From a virus (lineage: Duplodnaviria; Caudoviricetes), in the IMG/VR virus record IMGVR_UViG_3300020043_005902, positions 1 through 32,901 of that record: a stretch of DNA of 32,901 bases, one strand, 5' to 3'. A model generated the notes under the pieces. The model did not search any database, was not told where the DNA came from, and saw nothing but the letters and a program-made list of their open reading frames with translations. Positions 2,066-32,901 of the stretch are shown here, in pieces. Within the stretch, counting starts at the first letter, position 1. Each line of letters opens with the position of its first letter. The position numbers were made by a program, and so were the translations under genes.

Positions 2066-2299
2066 ATGCAACTCATCGCCAAAAACCTCGCCTCAATCGG
2101 GCGACTCTTAATCAAAGACATGATTAAAAACAAACCTGCCAAAATGACGCCAGACCAAGCGTTTCATCACGGAGTCGAATCTGCTGTCGAAAAAGACGGA
2201 TTTTCGCGAAATGCTTTCTTCGGTCAAAAAGAGAACTTCAAAGCCTACCGGGCGGGATACGCCTCCATTGACCCAAACCTCTCGACTTCATATCGCTAA
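2066..2299 (+). CDS. Hypothetical early protein, 77 aa
   Basis: ORF directly downstream of the promoter, with an A/C-rich leader, followed by a hairpin. Confidence 0.6.
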   Translation: MQLIAKNLASIGRLLIKDMIKNKPAKMTPDQAFHHGVESAVEKDGFSRNAFFGQKENFKAYRAGYASIDPNLSTSYR

Positions 2300-2313
2300 C
2301 CGCCCACCGCTCC

Positions 2314-2345
2314 CGCCCCGCCCGTAAAAACGGCGGGGTTTTTGG
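2314..2345 (+). terminator. GC-rich hairpin plus U-tract (copy 1 of a duplicated element)
   Basis: CCCCGCC-cgtaaaaac-GGCGGGG-TTTTT just after the stop at 2299. Confidence 0.6.
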
Positions 2346-2361
2346 GTGCCAACTCAACACC

Positions 2362-2484
2362 ATGAACCCAAGAGAAAAACAACCATCAAGCCTTTCAGGC
2401 GCTGGACTTCCAACGCGATTCCAGCGGCTCCTAGACAGCCAATTCCGCAAAAGAGCCAACCGCAAAGCCAAGGCCCGCAAATGA
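2362..2484 (+). CDS. Small basic hypothetical protein, 40 aa
   Basis: MNPREKQPSS...RKAKARK; its TGA overlaps the next ATG (ATGA at 2481-2484). Confidence 0.4.
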   Translation: MNPREKQPSSLSGAGLPTRFQRLLDSQFRKRANRKAKARK

Positions 2485-2993
2485 ACGACCGAGACCAAAA
2501 CATTGCCCTGGCGGAGTTCCACGGATGGGAAGGCGTCCCCGTGAAGAACGTAACAAAGGAACGGGACGGGGTGATTTATTGGAGGTCCCAGACGCCGGAC
2601 GGGCTTGAGAAATACAGCAGCAGCTTTGAAAGTTCCTGCGCAATTCGATGGCTCAAAAAGCCAGACGGAAGCCCGTTCTTAATCAGGTCAGGACCGATAA
2701 CACTAAATAACGTTGATACATATTCAAACGTAATCGCATTGGAGTATTCAAAAGCCAACGGATACGGCAAAGCTCCCCCCGACGTGAAGCCAAGTCTGGC
2801 TTATTTCTTAGAATACCTTCCTAATTATGGGGCCGATCTGAACGTGATGCACGATGTCGAGAAGCTGATCCCATTAAAAGATTTGATCAACTACTTAGAT
2901 ATTTTATCAGATTTAACTAAATACAATTCATCATTCGCCACGGCATTGGAGCGAAGGGAGGCTTTACTTAGGACAATTAGGAAATGGAAATAA
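2481..2993 (+). CDS. Phage ABA-sandwich-like domain protein (paralogue 1)
   Basis: Start MNDRDQNIALAEFHGW; LPNYGADLNVMHDVE and EALLRTIRKWK are shared in pattern with 4017-4355. Confidence 0.6.
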   Translation: MNDRDQNIALAEFHGWEGVPVKNVTKERDGVIYWRSQTPDGLEKYSSSFESSCAIRWLKKPDGSPFLIRSGPITLNNVDTYSNVIALEYSKANGYGKAPPDVKPSLAYFLEYLPNYGADLNVMHDVEKLIPLKDLINYLDILSDLTKYNSSFATALERREALLRTIRKWK

Positions 2994-3003
2994 ACCCCAC
3001 CCT

Positions 3004-3036
3004 CGCCCCGCCCATCAACACGGCGGGGCTTTTCGG
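3004..3036 (+). terminator. GC-rich hairpin plus U-tract (copy 2)
   Basis: CCCCGCC-catcaacac-GGCGGGG-CTTTT just after the stop at 2993; same stem and loop length as 2314-2345. Confidence 0.55.
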
Positions 3037-3052
3037 TGAACACTTAAAGCTT

Positions 3053-3796
3053 ATGAATCCGATTACACTGAAGTCCAAGTGCTTAGAATTGCAAAAGACT
3101 TCGCCAGAATTAACTACGCAAAAGATTATAGCATCAAGTCCAATTCTTTATGTAAAACAATTGGAAGAAGAGTCTGGCGAGAAATTTAAGCCAATTTATG
3201 ATTTATGCACTCCACCTCAATTTAATTGTTTTCTATTTGATTTCCCGTTTCTTGAAAGAAGGGGGCAGGGCTTTTCTGTCTTTGAAGATGGATGTTTTGC
3301 ATTTGTTTTTACGATGGGTGAAAACATTTACAAATTGACTGTGTTTGCAGATGAAACATACATAGTCCATTATTTTCTTTTTAATAAATGGCATGTAGCA
3401 AACGAAGACCCTACTTTCAAAAACAGCGGTCATATTTTACTGGGTGTCATATTTAAGTCTCTTTCTCTTTTTAGGAGTCCTTTATTTGTTAACGTAAAAT
3501 CTTCACCCTCTAAGCTAAATAGCAAATCCGTGGAATGGGTCAAGGTCCGCGAGTATTACACCGTAGTTCACCGCAAGCATGAGGCAAACGCCAAGGGAGC
3601 CGCCGAACTTGGCACCTACGGGGACAACACCCACAAACGTATTGCGCACGCCCGCAAGGCTCACTTCCGCATCCTACGTTCGGAAAAGTGGGGAAAGAAC
3701 CAAGGACGCAAGGTTTTTGTTTCAGCCACTTGGGTCGGACCCCGCGAGTGGATCGATGCCGACTCAAAGCAAATTTATTCAGTCCAAGGACGATAA
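3053..3796 (+). CDS. Hypothetical phage protein, 247 aa, with a C-terminal HxRxxHxR...WVG motif
   Basis: Likely start is MNPITL, after the hairpin. The 5' part is visibly AT-rich. The C-terminus HARKAHFRILR...FVSATWVG resembles a widespread uncharacterised phage family. Confidence 0.6.
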   Translation: MNPITLKSKCLELQKTSPELTTQKIIASSPILYVKQLEEESGEKFKPIYDLCTPPQFNCFLFDFPFLERRGQGFSVFEDGCFAFVFTMGENIYKLTVFADETYIVHYFLFNKWHVANEDPTFKNSGHILLGVIFKSLSLFRSPLFVNVKSSPSKLNSKSVEWVKVREYYTVVHRKHEANAKGAAELGTYGDNTHKRIAHARKAHFRILRSEKWGKNQGRKVFVSATWVGPREWIDADSKQIYSVQGR

Positions 3797-3808
3797 CAAA
3801 CTTTCATC

Positions 3809-4006
3809 ATGACCACACCACGCAAACCAAACCCGCGCAAACCGGGCCGCAAACCGGGCCGAAAGATGTCCGCCGCCATCACGTTCGGAGCCACGCCGGA
3901 TGCCGCCCAATTGTGGCGGAAAACGCTTCGGCGATATGGCATAAAAGCCGCGCCGTTTTATCGGGAGGCGATTGACGGAGCGATTGGAAGACTTTTAATT
4001 AAGTGA
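3809..4006 (+). CDS. Putative ribbon-helix-helix DNA-binding protein with a basic PGRK-repeat N-terminus
   Basis: PRKPNPRKPGRKPGRK followed by a short beta strand (AITFG) and two helices. Confidence 0.5.
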   Translation: MTTPRKPNPRKPGRKPGRKMSAAITFGATPDAAQLWRKTLRRYGIKAAPFYREAIDGAIGRLLIK

Positions 4007-4016
4007 ATTTACTATT

Positions 4017-4355
4017 ATGAAACCTGACGAAATTAACATTGCGATTGCTGAGTTCTGCGGATTTACTAACATCACAATTGAAAATATTGCGAATTATAGC
4101 GAGATGCATGGGACGCTCAATGAATGCGATATCGTTCCAATCCCCAACTACTACGGCGACTTGAACGCATGTAGAGATGCTTTGCTTAAACTACCGGATG
4201 ACCTGCACCACGAATACCACCGCCAACTCTACATTCTGACCAAGCCGATGCCGTTTGATATGTGGGCGCACAACTGGCATTTTCTTACTGCTGGCCCTGA
4301 CATCGTGAGCGCCGCAATCGTTCGGACAATCGGCAAATGGAGGGGCGGGCAATGA
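4017..4355 (+). CDS. Phage ABA-sandwich-like domain protein (paralogue 2)
   Basis: MKPDEINIAIAEFCGF...IPNYYGDLNAC...AIVRTIGKW, paralleling 2481-2993. Confidence 0.6.
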   Translation: MKPDEINIAIAEFCGFTNITIENIANYSEMHGTLNECDIVPIPNYYGDLNACRDALLKLPDDLHHEYHRQLYILTKPMPFDMWAHNWHFLTAGPDIVSAAIVRTIGKWRGGQ

Positions 4356-4642
4356 GTGAGTCTTCCCCCGCTGATACAAGAGCCGGGTTGCCTCCAGCGA
4401 CTTATTCGGCGTTTGAATTGCCGACAAAGTGCGGGTTCTATTGGTGGCGCGAAGATGCAACCAAGGACTGGCGACTCGTGGAACTTATGGACTTTGGTTC
4501 TGGCAGAATCATGACCTACGACCTTGATGAATGTGAATGGTCAGGGCGCTCTTTGGAGATTTGGCGCGAAGATTTCCCGATTGGAGAGTGGCGTTATATC
4601 GTGCCGCCGAGCACCAAGGTGAGCCACGCGGCTGGCGAATAA
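4352..4642 (+). CDS. Cassette A gene, hypothetical Trp-rich protein
   Basis: ATGA overlap with the previous gene; LPTKCGFYWWRE motif; stops inside the attC at 4606-4729. Confidence 0.65.
   Translation: MSESSPADTRAGLPPATYSAFELPTKCGFYWWREDATKDWRLVELMDFGSGRIMTYDLDECEWSGRSLEIWREDFPIGEWRYIVPPSTKVSHAAGE
4381..4410 (-). mobile_element. Degenerate half attC site (R''-L'' arm only)
   Basis: Minus strand: GCCGAAT-AAGTC-GCTGGAGG-CAACCCGGCT, colinear with the R''/L'' arms of the two complete sites. No complementary arm was found. Confidence 0.6.
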
Positions 4643-4729
4643 CTTTAGAAACTATTATCATGTCACAATCAAAGAAACCTTCCCCCGACACAGCAGAGAG
4701 CCGCGTTGCGCTCCACCGTTTTGTTCGGC
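4606..4729 (-). mobile_element. Integron attC site, 124 bp (R' GTT mutated to GCT)
   Basis: Minus strand: R'' GCCGAAC, 5 nt, L'' GGTGGAGC (extra base), stem ACGCGGCT...AGCCGCGT, L' GCTCACC, 5 nt, R' GCTCGGC. Confidence 0.75.
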
Positions 4730-4836
4730 CTGCCTTGGTGTCTTGCCCTGCGTGCCGGGGCTACGATTTAGAGCGCCAATGGTGCGACAAATGCAAAACA
4801 ACGGGCGTAGTTGAATTAAGAGGAGGTTCCAAGTGA
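4660..4836 (+). CDS. Cassette B gene 1, small CxxC...CxxC zinc-finger protein, 58 aa
   Basis: ATG lies in the attC loop; CPACRG...CDKCKTTG (DnaJ-like Zn-finger pattern). Confidence 0.55.
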   Translation: MSQSKKPSPDTAESRVALHRFVRPALVSCPACRGYDLERQWCDKCKTTGVVELRGGSK

Positions 4837-5084
4837 AAGGCAGTCTGTCGGTGCTGATGATGACTGCTGCGCTCATGGAATCTCAGGGGCTGCGATTCCA
4901 CAATTTTGAAGCAGCATCAAGAAAACCAAAGCCCGGCGAAAAGACCGCCGCCGACTTCGCCGCTATTGCGCGAGCCAAAGAACGCCGGAAACGCAAAGCC
5001 GAGCGTAAAGAACGGGAACGCCAACGCCAGCCGAACCGTCTGGCTGAGCAACGCGGCTCCAACGATGGAGGGACAACGCCATGA
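4833..5084 (+). CDS. Cassette B gene 2, basic hypothetical protein
   Basis: GTGA overlap with the previous gene; AIARAKERRKRKAERK; stops inside the attC at 5030-5120. Confidence 0.6.
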   Translation: MKGSLSVLMMTAALMESQGLRFHNFEAASRKPKPGEKTAADFAAIARAKERRKRKAERKERERQRQPNRLAEQRGSNDGGTTP

Positions 5085-5120
5085 GCCAAAAGCCGCGTTC
5101 GCTCCAGCCACTCGTTCGGC
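5030..5120 (-). mobile_element. Integron attC site, 91 bp, intact
   Basis: Minus strand: R'' GCCGAAC, 5 nt GAGTG, L'' GCTGGAGC (8 nt with extra G), G, AACGCGGCT...AGCCGCGTT, L' GCTCAGC (7 nt), 6 nt CAGACG, R' GTTCGGC. This is canonical attC geometry. Confidence 0.85.
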
Positions 5121-5416
5121 CTGCCTTGGTGGAGTCTCGGTGGGATTGGCTCGTTGCCTCGACAAGCAAGGCCCTGCCATGCGGCAGAGTCACCGTGTCT
5201 TTACGACTGCTGGATGAAGTGTGCCAAAATGCTGCCGTCCTGCACGCATGGAACGGCCAGAAACGGGCGGAAGCCCTGGCTCTGGCCATAGGTGCGTGTT
5301 TTGAAATTCACCATGACAGCGTGATTCTCTGGCCGCCGCCCGCTGGGGAATCCGCGCAACCCACAAAGGTAACTTCAAAAAGGATTTCGGGGTCGACATT
5401 GAGTGTTACGTTTTGA
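5081..5416 (+). CDS. Cassette C gene, hypothetical; the tail after about 5338 is read-through into the P63C remnant
   Basis: ATG lies in the attC loop and overlaps the previous TGA. The sequence switches to P63C-like DNA after WPP. Confidence 0.55.
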   Translation: MSQKPRSLQPLVRPALVESRWDWLVASTSKALPCGRVTVSLRLLDEVCQNAAVLHAWNGQKRAEALALAIGACFEIHHDSVILWPPPAGESAQPTKVTSKRISGSTLSVTF

Positions 5417-5820
5417 GTGATGCCAAAAAGACGGCCGTCATTAGCCAAAGCGGATTGGCAAGAGCCGTTGGCTTTCGAACCGGAGCGACCCAAATAACTC
5501 GTTTTCTAGCTTCCAAATCAATGAAGGGATACGTCGGGGTTGAACTTCTTGAAAAACTATCGCAACCCATTAAGTTTCAATGGACTCCCCTTGAGGTTGG
5601 ACAGCCTCCAACAGCGGGATACGGCTTTGACGTAACGCTCCTTATAGACATTTGTAGGGCCATAGACGACGCCCACAGGGCTGGGCGGCTTAGTAGCCGC
5701 CACACCGAGGCGCAAGAGCCCTAAGAATGCAGCTTGGGCGTGTGCTTGAAATGTCGGAATCTTCCGCCTCAAGGATCGAGTATGAGAAAAAGATTATTGA
5801 GCGCTTTGGCGGTCAACCCG
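5330..5820 (+). pseudogene. Remnant of a P63C-domain (Mx8 p63-like) protein gene; 5'-truncated, internally deleted and frameshifted
   Basis: One frame reads AAARWGIRATHKGNFKKDFGVDIECYVLSDAKKTAVISQ...LIDICRAI...GRL. From 5709 another frame reads GARALRMQLGRVLEMSESS...YEKKIIERFGGQ. These resemble the two ends of P63C proteins. Confidence 0.7.
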
Positions 5821-14321: not shown

Positions 14322-15155
14322 TTAAGATTTAAGAACAGAAGGAGGGACCGGAGTTGGCTCTGTGTCGTCGCCAATAAGTCCCGGTATTTCGTCCGGCTTG
14401 CGGACTGTTGGCGTTGGCTGGTTGGTAAAAACGGCAGCGATTTCAGCAGGGAGAACACCCTTTTCAAAAGGCAATAAGTCCGGCAATTCATACCTGTTTT
14501 TAGCGTCAAAGGCGGCGGTTCCTACGCAGTGAATCACGCGGCCGACTCCGCCCGTAGCCTTCGCCTTTCCGTCGCCTCCCTTAACGATTCTGGTATCGTC
14601 ATTGATGAAAAGAATCATGTCCGCCCACTCTTTCAAGTGTCGCAAATTTGACTGCTTGTCGGAGTTGTGAAGGGTGATTTCATACTTCGTATAACCCTCC
14701 GTTTGGTCAGGCGGCGAAACCTTGACGGTGCGAGAGTGAGCAAGAAAAACCACGTTAAAGCCGGTGGCAATAAGGCGCTCGGCATACTTTATGACCTTGG
14801 CAAACTCTTCGCATAAATGGACATAGCCTTTCCCGTATCCAAAGTCTTCCACACTGTCCTTTTTGGCAATCTGGCATATGTGAGTTGACGCTAGACGTTC
14901 AAGCCAATCGGCAGTGTCGAAAACAACGGTCTTGAAGTCGGCCTTGTGATTCTTTCCTATCTCTACGATACAATCCAAAACTTCCTGCCATGTCGAAGGC
15001 TCAAAGCGGGCAACGTCCAAGTGATAAGTTCCACCTTCAACGTCAATGAAAACGGGCGATGGGAGAAGTGAGGCGAGCGAAGACTTGCCCCGCCCTTCTG
15101 GCGAGTAAATTACAGCCCTGACCGGGCTTTTTTTGATTCCTCTAGAGAGTTTCAT
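14322..15155 (-). CDS. AAA_24 family ATPase (Sak4-like recombination protein)
   Basis: IYSPEGRGKSS, FIDVEGGT, VVFDTADWLE, FGYGKGY, FLAHS, KEWAD, AKNRY. Confidence 0.85.
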   Translation of the reverse strand: MKLSRGIKKSPVRAVIYSPEGRGKSSLASLLPSPVFIDVEGGTYHLDVARFEPSTWQEVLDCIVEIGKNHKADFKTVVFDTADWLERLASTHICQIAKKDSVEDFGYGKGYVHLCEEFAKVIKYAERLIATGFNVVFLAHSRTVKVSPPDQTEGYTKYEITLHNSDKQSNLRHLKEWADMILFINDDTRIVKGGDGKAKATGGVGRVIHCVGTAAFDAKNRYELPDLLPFEKGVLPAEIAAVFTNQPTPTVRKPDEIPGLIGDDTEPTPVPPSVLKS

Positions 15156-17446: not shown

Positions 17447-17488
17447 ATCCTGCATGATCCCTTGAATAAGTCAACACCAATTCAAAAG
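17447..17488 (-). promoter_or_regulatory. Early promoter with an overlapping palindromic operator (copy 2)
   Basis: Minus strand CTTTTGAATTGGTGTTGACTTATTCAA; TTGACT, 16 nt, CAGGAT; TTGAA-N14-TTCAA palindrome. Confidence 0.65.
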
Positions 17489-17534
17489 AAAGTTGGTTTA
17501 TTTTTTATCCGCTCACAGTCATCAACTTAGACGC

Positions 17535-30496: not shown

Positions 30497-30519
30497 TTAT
30501 TGCAAAGTTTTTGCGTTAA
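30497..30519 (-). promoter_or_regulatory. Conserved late-region motif TTAACGCAAA-N4-TTGCAATAA (copy upstream of the protease gene)
   Basis: 7 nt upstream of the ATG at 30489; same arms as 21924-21946. Confidence 0.55.
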
Positions 30520-31351
30520 GGTCAAGCGGTTTGTTGCAAATCTTTTGCAGGAACCGCCGTCTGCGTGCCGTCAAGCATCGCAAGCGCCTCACTTCCAAGG
30601 TTTTGCAGAATCCAGAGGCGGCGGTATTGGTCATAAGTAATACCCAAACTGTCCGCCCCCTTCTGAAATTCTTCTTCAGGGGTCTGACCGTAAAGGGCAA
30701 AATACTCATCAATGGACATGTTCATCGTCCTGACCTCTTCCAAGATGGCCTTGGTATCCCTGCCAAGGTCAATTGAGAGGTCACGCGGGCGGCGGAAACC
30801 TACGTCCCACCAACCGTCAACGGCCTCGACTCGCTTGGCGTCAATCTCATAGGCCAGCCAATGCAGCATCAGGCGCTGAAGGACAGGCCACAGGATGGCG
30901 TCTTGAATCATTTCAATCCTGACCTTCGCCTTTTCGATAATCGTCCGCTGTTGGGTGCCTTGTGTGCTGCCAAGGAAAACAAAGTCGTATGGCCAGCGCA
31001 CGGCCGAACAAAACTCCCGAACAAAGTTTTCCTTGAACGGGATGAAGTATTGGCCTGGATATTCCGGGCGCATGTTCGTGATTTTGGAGCCAACCGGAAC
31101 ACGCTGCATGGTTACGCCGGTAATTTTTTCAAACCGTTGACCGCCTGGGATGTCGGCAGTCGGAGCGGTCTTGATTCCCAGCGTGGCGTCCTTGGCGCTT
31201 TGAGTAGGGCCGCCGTCCTCATACAGAACGGCGGTTGAGAGTTGCAGTTTGTAGCCAACTTTCGCCAGTGCGTTCAGTTCGGAGACATCAAACAGCGAGT
31301 TAATGGAGGATGTCCAAGACGGACCAACTCGCAACTGTCCAGCCCTGACCG
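30506..31351 (-). repeat. Left arm (846 bp) of a diverged inverted duplication
   Basis: Reverse complement matches 32056-32901 at both ends, has the same length and encodes a colinear protein. Confidence 0.9.
30522..31351 (-). pseudogene. C-terminal ~275 aa of portal 2, variant allele lacking its N-terminus
   Basis: From VRAGQLRV onward it matches 31440-32891 with 24 substitutions plus a different last few residues. The frame is intact, but the first ~25 aa of ORF 30522-31424 are unrelated. Confidence 0.8.
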
Positions 31352-31428
31352 ATGCGCAGTTTGAAGCGTTTGTATATGAAGAGGTTACGTCCGGCATCCG
31401 CCCCAACTTTGGTTCCGTCACCAACTGA
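31342..31428 (+). pseudogene. 3' end of a gpW-like gene upstream of portal 2, truncated by the inversion junction
   Basis: Reads ALTDAQFEAFVYEEVTSGIRPNFGSVTN*, ending 11 nt before the portal ATG. The ending IRPNF parallels LRADF of 1606-1938. Confidence 0.5.
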
Positions 31429-31439
31429 CCGCCGCCGCC

Positions 31440-32891
31440 ATGTTCCTCAAGATTTTTCCCACCCTTAAATCCTCCTTTCCCTACGTTTTTTGGGGCGGAT
31501 CAACGTCCTTCACCGAGGGCGCGCAGACGAACGAAAACCGCAACAAGTCCGGAGCCGTCGAGCCGCGTTCCGTGATGGAGGAAATTTCCTCCTATTCGCG
31601 ATGGGAGGCTGTGAAGTTCTGCCGCTTCATCGAAAACAACCAGTCCGCTACCGCTGGCATTATTTCCGACATGGTGGATTACTCCGTGCGCACCGGTTTG
31701 ATTCCCGTTTTTCGAGGCGGGGATAAGGCTTGGCGCGCCAAAGTCACCAAGAGTTTCAAAGAGTTTTGTAAATCACCAACCGCCGCCGGAACGAACGACC
31801 TGACAGCCGAGTTAAAGGTCATCGCCCGTGCTGTGTTCCGCGACGGCGAGGTTTTCCCCATGTTCACGGAGAAGCCAGACGGGACGCCATGCCTTCAAAC
31901 GCTTGAAACTCATGTCTTTAAGAATAAGTTCGGCGGAGTTCCTGCCGATGGTTTTATTGACGGCGTTCGTTACAATGAGGCCGGAGAACCGCTTGAATAC
32001 CAGACATTTACAGGCGAGAAGCGACCCGCCTCCGCCATCCTCCACATTTGCGAGCCGGTCAGGGCTGGACAGTTGCGAGTCCCTCCGCCTTGGACCTCCT
32101 CAATCAATAACCAGTTTGATGTCAACGAGTTGAACGCGCTGGCAAAGGTCGGTTATAAACTGCAACTCACCACTCCGGTTCTTTATGAAGACAGTGGACC
32201 GGCTCAAAGCGCCAAGAACAGCACGCTAGGAATCCAAACCGCCCCGACTGCCGACAGCCCCGGCGGTCAACGTTTTGAAAAAGTCACAGGCGTAACCATG
32301 CAGCGTGTTCCAGTTGGTTCCAAGATCACGAACATGCGACCGGAATACCCAGGCCAGTTCTTCATTCCGTTCAAGGAGTCATTCATTCGGGAGCTGTGCG
32401 CTTGCCTCCGCTGGCCCTACGACTTCACGTTCCTTGGCAGCACGCAAGGCACCCAACAGCGGACCATCATTGAAAAGGCTAAGGTCCGCATCGAAATGAT
32501 TCAAGACGCCATCCTCTGGCCTGTTCTTCAACGCCTGATGCTGCATTGGCTGGCCTATGAAATTGAAGCCAAGCGAGTCGAGGCCGTTGACGGATGGTGG
32601 GACGTAGGTTTCCGCCGCCCGCGCGACCTCTCAATTGACCTCGGACGCGACACCAAGGCCATCTTGGAAGAGGTTCGCACGATGAACATGTCCATTGATG
32701 AGTATTTTGCCCTTTACGGTCAGACCCCCGAAGAGGAATTTCAGAAAGGCGCGGACAGTTTGGGCATTACCTATGACCAATACCGCCGTCTTTGGATTCT
32801 GCAAAACCTTGGAAATGAGGCGCTTGCGATGCTTGACGGCACGCAGACGGCGGTTCCTGCAAAAGATTTGCAACAAGCCGATTTACCTTAA
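31440..32891 (+). CDS. Phage portal protein, lambda family (portal 2), 483 aa
   Basis: CRFIENN, FRDGEVF, DGVRYNEAGEPLEY, GQLRVPPPW, RPRDLSIDLGRD. Confidence 0.85.
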   Translation: MFLKIFPTLKSSFPYVFWGGSTSFTEGAQTNENRNKSGAVEPRSVMEEISSYSRWEAVKFCRFIENNQSATAGIISDMVDYSVRTGLIPVFRGGDKAWRAKVTKSFKEFCKSPTAAGTNDLTAELKVIARAVFRDGEVFPMFTEKPDGTPCLQTLETHVFKNKFGGVPADGFIDGVRYNEAGEPLEYQTFTGEKRPASAILHICEPVRAGQLRVPPPWTSSINNQFDVNELNALAKVGYKLQLTTPVLYEDSGPAQSAKNSTLGIQTAPTADSPGGQRFEKVTGVTMQRVPVGSKITNMRPEYPGQFFIPFKESFIRELCACLRWPYDFTFLGSTQGTQQRTIIEKAKVRIEMIQDAILWPVLQRLMLHWLAYEIEAKRVEAVDGWWDVGFRRPRDLSIDLGRDTKAILEEVRTMNMSIDEYFALYGQTPEEEFQKGADSLGITYDQYRRLWILQNLGNEALAMLDGTQTAVPAKDLQQADLP

Positions 32892-32901
32892 CGCAAAAAC
32901 T
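32056..32901 (+). repeat. Right arm (846 bp) of the diverged inverted duplication; ends at the window edge
   Basis: Starts with a 25-bp perfect match to the reverse complement of 31327-31351. Ends CCTTAACGCAAAAACT, the reverse complement of 30506-30521. Confidence 0.9.

Follow-up and report, generated by a model that had tools for sequence, protein, structure and literature searches.

In the accepted picture of integron cassettes, recombination of the attC bottom strand places the gene under Pc. An array whose genes lie on that same bottom strand is present in the DNA analysed here (the window, 32,901 nt). An earlier reading made from the letters alone (the sequence-only reading) had proposed a reversed, phage-specific cassette format, in which genes start in the loop of their own attC site and take their stop codon from the next one.

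The window is the entire 32.9-kb virus record, which is linear and was rated 42% complete by CheckV. Profile searches (Pfam and PHROG) found genes for portal, capsid, helicase and methylase, and the array sits in a block of small + strand genes extending from 2066 to 5724. The best match of the capsid protein was to an Opitutaceae MAG (58% identity), which is too weak for a host to be named; the attC motif of the window is of the type found in Planctomycetota and Verrucomicrobiota arrays. Comparison of positions 4300-5400 with 50,697 GenBank phage records gave no match. Since a scan for sigma-70 promoters returned matches at chance level (4 against 3.6 expected), no promoter is named for the array. 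Several other features of the record were observed. A 57-nt element occurs in two inverted copies (1983-2039 and 17449-17505, 75% alike) at the heads of two converging gene blocks and is possibly an early promoter. Two copies of a 51-nt hairpin element (2307-2357 and 2997-3047, 76% alike) lie upstream of the array, between genes or at gene ends, and the genes at 2346-2993 and 4017-4355 encode similar C-terminal peptides. At 30506-32901 and 45-1958, the portal gene is split in three and an 853-nt, 87% inverted repeat is present at the contig end; related phages may have been merged into a chimeric record.

attC sites consist of inverted R''/R' and L''/L' boxes that fold into a hairpin that has a variable loop, leaves the central spacer unpaired and carries extra-helical bases on its R''-L'' arm, as outlined in PMC2727003. 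Two sites of the window show these boxes and the hairpin, and the same motif occurs beside IntI in bacterial arrays. On the + strand the arm with the extra base is the 3' arm, and by the asymmetry described in PMC2727003 the + strand is therefore the attC bottom strand. Site 2 (5030-5120, top strand on -) is intact: the AAC/GTT core is present at both R boxes, the crossover position is 5035|5036, and the loop contains GGAGG and an ATGA overlap at 5081-5084. Compared with shuffled sequences, it folded at z -5.0 as DNA (0/200 as good) and z -4.6 as RNA; the predicted RNA hairpin has an energy of -57 kcal/mol, with GGAGG and AUG partly paired. The pattern of this site was present in at least about 270 genome stretches, mostly of Planctomycetota. 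attC sites have characteristic spacer lengths, which were checked here against bacterial arrays; the spacers are 6/5 in site 2 and 5/5 in site 1. Site 1 (4606-4729, top strand on -) has TAA at 4640-4642 and ATG at 4660 in its loop. Its crossover position, 4611|4612, reads AG|C, and the contigs of two other runs (X3 and X4) have AAC there (4611 G>A). Its free folding is weak (z -1.7, 13/200 shuffles as good); nevertheless, its arms pair arm to arm. A half site without an assigned strand (4382-4410) consists of the far arm only (L'' and R''); the partner arm is absent from the fold (z +1.55 against shuffles), and the core triplet is ATT where the run X2 contig and relatives have GTT. The relatives of both degenerate sites thus have the core. 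An 18-nt stretch, R'' plus 11 nt, is repeated in identical letters on the + strand at 4723-4740 and 5114-5131, which confirms the repeat reported by the sequence-only reading.

A CALIN is a group of at least two close attC sites on one strand without a nearby intI. The window has two same-strand sites 424 nt apart, site 1 being degenerate, and no PF00589 match nearby. It is not a complete integron: the 42%-complete record has no intI, no attI was found, and the genes are not on the top strand under Pc. The right end of the array, where attI would lie, has been replaced at 5335/5336, and scanning the window's + strand for an attI-like motif gave none. The local array is thus damaged, with AGC in site 1, half of the first site, a replaced right end and no integrase in the incomplete record. 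Sites 1 and 2 are candidate IntI substrates, which would be recombined via the bottom strand.

The genes of the array follow a non-cassette phage gene (4017-4355, +) without a Pfam or PHROG match, the stop of which overlaps the start of gene A (ATGA, 4352-4355). A run X2 contig spans this junction, with changes mostly at third positions. Gene A (4352-4642, +; 96 aa) encodes a small phage domain of unassigned function, with an N-terminus formed by the attC far arm and its last 10 aa taken from site 1. Among its 82 relatives, PN occurs within the last 25 aa in 25 (4.2 expected from shuffles), and the N-termini include LVRR, CSA, GSA and VRP, as read from the proteins and not from DNA. An Atlas search with gene A returned viral clusters only. 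Gene B1 (4660-4836, +; 58 aa) is zinc-ribbon-like, with a CxxC-CxxC pattern, and matches phrog_11137 (E 8.6e-12). A Pfam match of B1 to L32p was discounted and taken as a match of the cysteine pattern. Gene B2 (4833-5084, +; 83 aa), the second gene of the same cassette, has a GTG start after GAGGAGG; family searches (Pfam, PHROG) gave nothing above cut-off, and one weak viral relative was found. Gene C (5081-5416, +; 111 aa) has a homolog, P0002, which is 84% identical over 79 aa, with a different attC N-terminus and a QPN tail. The last 26 aa of gene C are read from a foreign fragment of an unrelated phage gene (5336-5724, +; phrog_2384, E 1.3e-18, profile positions 46-161 of 338), presumably P63C-like, which occupies the place of further cassettes and attI. 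Cassette C is joined to this fragment two bases before the expected crossover, at a common GCCG (5330-5340); the join may be a microhomology join, an off-target recombination or a misassembly. Viral and metagenome contigs were searched for loci of gene A and of gene C, and none turned up; A and B2 gave only short matches that do not convince.

The sequence-only reading agreed with this map in its main lines. All of its coordinates for ORFs on + and canonical attC sites on - were correct, homologs and phage-family matches fall on the bottom strand, and the starts at ATG 4660 and ATGA 5081-5084 do lie in the attC loop. The attC-arm N-termini ALHRFVRP, SLQPLVRP and GLPPATYSA are encoded in + ORFs, but the arm of the last is only the half site. 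Both upstream genes cross the crossover in the same frame (gene A as CCG AGC at 4607, gene B2 as CCG AAC at 5031), AAC being read at site 1 in the two other contigs. Both also stop inside the loop; the stop-start overlap, however, is limited to site 2, because the stop in site 1 lies 17 nt before the start. Two ORFs, rather than the single gene assumed, lie between the two sites, and gene C is not an intact cassette, since its body stops at 5335 and continues into the unrelated fragment.

Given this layout in one damaged array, we compared viral with bacterial sites. Pattern scans found at least 154 viral and at least 141 genome loci. A geometric attC detector, which gave 0 matches in shuffled copies of every set, was applied, and we kept 55 unique viral sites on 24 contigs and 190 bacterial sites at 107 loci, each with a 300-nt flank; neither the sites on one contig nor near-identical contigs count as independent. 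Left of the crossover, the bottom-strand frame that stayed open longest read AAC as a codon at 48/55 viral sites, compared with 65/190 bacterial sites. This fixed frame was found at 21/24 loci when one site per locus was taken and at 25/28 of the sites unmatched by the search patterns. The frame at the crossover, which the sequence-only reading had offered as the point on which it could fail, is thus not random. The fixed frame stopped inside the site at all 55 viral sites (36 and 33 for the other two frames) versus 76/190 bacterial sites, and the tail past the crossover in viral sites measured 2-21 codons (median 12). An in-site ATG opening at least 40 codons past the far arm was present at 49/55 viral and 72/190 bacterial sites. 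In the viral sites, this ATG overlapped the stop (-8 to -1) in 30 cases, followed it by 0-10 nt in 13 and by 11-30 nt in 1, and lay elsewhere in 5. At the far arm, the frame of this ATG varies (19/21/9), in line with the variation that had been claimed there, although in the window itself B1 and C agree and only A differs. The further claim, that any cassette order keeps the genes coupled, describes a tendency (ATG -8 to +10 nt from the stop in 43/49) and not a rule: 6/55 sites lack an in-site ATG of this kind, 7/55 are outside the fixed frame, and one related array has a top-strand gene. By six-frame score with a looser detector, the left gene was on the bottom strand at 61/74 viral sites and on the top strand at 155/197 bacterial sites; for a gene caller, counting called sites only, the ratio of bottom to top was 11:2 in viruses and 2:69 in bacteria. 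The layout is therefore general in viral loci when set against the bacterial control, and the phage-specific format that had been proposed is supported. As a separate observation, an ordinary phage gene in another locus (L304:4495-4600) ends at the first site of the array; its TAA lies within the R box, which looks like insertion of the first cassette at the stop codon of a gene.

The record, 42% complete, yielded no tyrosine recombinase (PF00589), and no IntI above cut-off was found in any of five phage records related to it, one of them complete. A single-protein IntI query gave no match against the viral contigs. An IntI alignment used as query found 108 stretches; the best 80 of the 108 were used and gave 79 viral loci, chosen without any attC pattern, and 13/14 proteins tested passed the TIGR02249 cut-off. 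attC sites were present at 42/79 of these loci, and the geometry was canonical at 40/42, that is, the sites lie upstream of intI, their bottom strand is the intI strand, and the genes run towards attI and intI. The sites at these loci again showed the fixed frame (60/75), a stop in the site (73/75), an in-site ATG (48/75) and bottom-strand coding (62/75). An attI-like motif, drawn by eye from these same viral loci with duplicates kept, lay 32-86 nt before the intI ATG at 48/79 viral and 1/80 bacterial loci. The upstream gene entered this motif in the fixed frame in 45/48 cases and stopped before or over the ATG in 48/48, the count of stops having no other-frame control. Phage replication or integration genes were on the intI strand at 5/8 loci checked. 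The bacterial IntI control (best 80 of 512) supplied only 26 sites and is small and not clean by raw count (frame 15/26, stop in site 20/26); TAA was in the R box at 17/26 sites, the non-TAA sites split 4/3/2 between the frames, and the coding strand was the top strand at 19/26. Among bacteria with the same attC motif, IntI was above cut-off in 3/5 genomes tested. A FastTree phylogeny of 63 viral and 80 bacterial IntI proteins contained several virus-only groups, the largest of which (19 members, support 0.99) adjoins Opitutaceae IntIs under midpoint rooting. Because the IntI-chosen viral loci keep the normal geometry of an integron, with genes running towards attI and intI, we regard the layout as a phage variant of the integron, and the window is a damaged, integrase-less copy of this widespread variant.

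Relatives of the array were compared in contigs from eight runs, which are of low depth and none of which covers the whole stretch. Four variants of protein A are alike up to YIVPP, continue with N or S, and then have four different tails. Contigs of runs X2 and X6 track gene A to 4610 and then enter other attC arms, with different spacers and not inside a common arm; the run X2 contig tracks gene C to 5335, followed by AAC and an attC arm; and a run X4 contig retains the window's neighbour of gene A. The junction of A with site 1 is spanned by contigs of other runs. Neighbours thus switch at 4610 and 5335, as in composite sites with the crossover in R', and the outer R bases (23:5) agree. In 23/36 informative viral pairs, the previous site's far arm is the better pairing partner of the four bases that precede AAC (own arm 5, ties 8), the corresponding bacterial counts being 17, 6 and 2; such pairing is what composite sites predict. 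Since all-against-all blastn of the viral arrays found almost no cassettes common to different contigs, changes of order cannot be read from the arrays.

Not all exchanges in these relatives occur at the crossover. In a run X1 contig, 5114 follows directly on 4722 by way of the 18 common nt, which puts the loop of B on the body of C. In other samples, among them contigs of runs X9 and X3 (run X9 is guessed to be RNA), three or more different gene bodies follow the 18-nt stretch, and the body of gene C was seen with three 5' arms in two frames. A second route, away from the crossover and unexplained by IntI, seems to swap these 5' arms. The join over 18 nt and the one gene body with three arms are what would be expected if the sites were attC-derived repeats now shuffled mainly by homologous recombination via a phage annealing protein, with IntI out of play here. 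The degenerate cores, the lack of an integrase in the record and the presence of an AAA_24 protein (14322-15155), which we take to have a Sak4-like role, point the same way. We nevertheless judge this explanation unlikely, given that the X2 and X6 contigs leave gene A, and the X2 contig leaves gene C, at the crossover and into different spacers, that the R boxes are composite, and that many phages with the same layout retain IntI. The IntI and annealing-protein routes can coexist.

It is very improbable that the phage acquired ordinary host cassettes, with the real genes on - and the + ORFs being shadow frames. The viral survey offers some material for this idea, as 13/74 viral sites score top on the left. 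In addition, a 15-site phage array (G001) has a conserved top-strand gene (L305:8083-8526) over an open 148-codon bottom-strand shadow frame that runs from loop to loop; this top-strand ORF has 17 homologs (51-89% identity), so top-strand cassettes do occur in phage arrays, and several other cassettes of that array look similar. In the window, however, the homologs belong to the + ORFs (82 for A, 84% identity for C, a PHROG match for B1). Among hand-picked ORFs of three related arrays, PHROG matches were obtained for 7/36 on the bottom strand (four methyltransferases, one RNA ligase and two unnamed) and 0/15 on the top strand. For the window, the host-cassette explanation is largely refuted. 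Chance folds, terminators or an assembly artefact are more improbable still: the contig does look chimeric elsewhere (portal in three pieces, 853-nt inverted repeat), site 1 folds weakly and no compared contig spans the whole stretch, but the detector found nothing in shuffles, contigs of other runs span the upstream-gene/A and A/site 1 junctions, and the same layout recurs in 24 plus 42 other viral loci.

In integrons, IntI cuts the folded attC bottom strand at AA|C. We return, with high confidence, to the reading that the attC sites belong to a phage operon whose genes lie on the bottom strand and run from loop to loop, the sites being most likely exchanged by the integron integrase at AA|C. 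For the present array, IntI would have to come from the missing part of the genome, from the host or from another phage, and would cut at AA|C as it does elsewhere. The mobile unit would be loop first and gene second, beginning with the C of one crossover and ending with the AA of the following one, and such a cassette would thus bring the stop of the upstream gene, a ribosome site and a start. A cassette ending in the fixed frame would be terminated by any following cassette or by attI. The loop has a fixed-frame stop and then a start, and each gene enters it in that frame, so that a change of neighbour would alter only the tail of 2-21 codons. A phage promoter at the array's old end would drive transcription towards attI and through intI, opposite to that from Pc. 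On terminating in the loop, the ribosome would open the RNA hairpin and begin again within a few bases. Cassette A has probably lost its mobility.

A wider reading, to which we give about an even chance, is that phages run integrons of their own, with IntI, attI and a separate, back-to-front pool of cassettes in early operons that are transcribed into intI; the cassettes would be phage genes onto which attC ends were grafted repeatedly and in different frames, and their polarity would act as a firewall. The domain of gene A occurs both bare and with many attC-like ends, which suggests that ordinary phage genes have acquired attC by grafting more than once. Behind the firewall, one recombinase would serve both pools, but host cassettes, anti-phage ones included, would land antisense in a phage array, and phage cassettes would land antisense in a host integron. 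Chromosomal and mobile integrons are reported to contain anti-phage cassettes (10.1101/2024.07.02.601686, 10.1101/2024.07.02.601719). The firewall is put forward as a hypothesis, because a host-integron origin of the top-strand genes is unsupported: two bacterial homologs of the G001 top-strand gene were in cassettes in 0/2 cases, and a search for bacterial relatives of two further top-strand ORFs found none.

The array works like an integron array and fits the CALIN definition, and it breaks the textbook rule of a top-strand gene under Pc. It resembles the phage arrays of Qi et al. 2023 (PMC9892861), where phages carry attC clusters without an integrase, often with DNA methyltransferase cassettes, and where IntI1 recombined 5/6 phage attC sites. 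Those arrays are described as typical, or as pieces of host integrons in temperate phages, with divergent sites in one phage; the main text of that paper contains no account of bottom-strand genes, of starts and stops in the loop, of a fixed frame or of an intI co-oriented with the cassette genes. The sedentary chromosomal integrons of Planctomycetota and Verrucomicrobiota share the attC motif, the side of the crossover, a similar loop length (median 57 nt against 62 nt in viral sites) and an extra base that is mostly C (186/190 sites against 37/55), with IntI in the 3/5 genomes mentioned above. They differ in having genes on the top strand and outside the site and bottom-strand frames without preference (63/59/67). 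A functional parallel is offered by ORF-11 in attI1 and the short attC ORFs, which are reported to aid downstream translation by relieving the barrier of the attC hairpin, translation through the att site likewise ending beside the next start (PMC8876359). These class 1 helper ORFs, as described there, are short and on the top strand, whereas in the phage layout it is, as a rule, the cargo proteins whose two ends fall within sites, and they are encoded on the opposite strand. In inverted-integrase integrons (Treponema and others; PMC4889954), intI and the cassette genes are likewise co-directional, but there intI is flipped relative to attC and the cassettes are normal, whereas in the phage loci intI and attC are regular (40/42) and the genes are flipped. 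A literature search for a reversed, frame-locked layout found no account of one; it covered the available text of PMC2727003, PMC8618304, PMC4889954, PMC8876359, PMC13323075 and 10.1101/2022.02.06.479319, among other sources, with subscription journals mostly outside its coverage.

Orientation under Pc is overturned as a general rule for cassettes by a large phage pool that is built the opposite way, with a locked frame and with protein ends encoded in the site, and the reversed cassettes point to phage-borne clades of IntI. The layout also accounts for a class of unusual peptides at the N and C termini of small phage proteins. Since the gene A family is found both bare and with many different attC arms, the birth of cassettes can be tested by comparison, and, if the grafting reading is true, it would be visible here. 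For the phages themselves, the layout is a route by which methyltransferases and other accessory genes can be shuffled, likely without breaking the operon.
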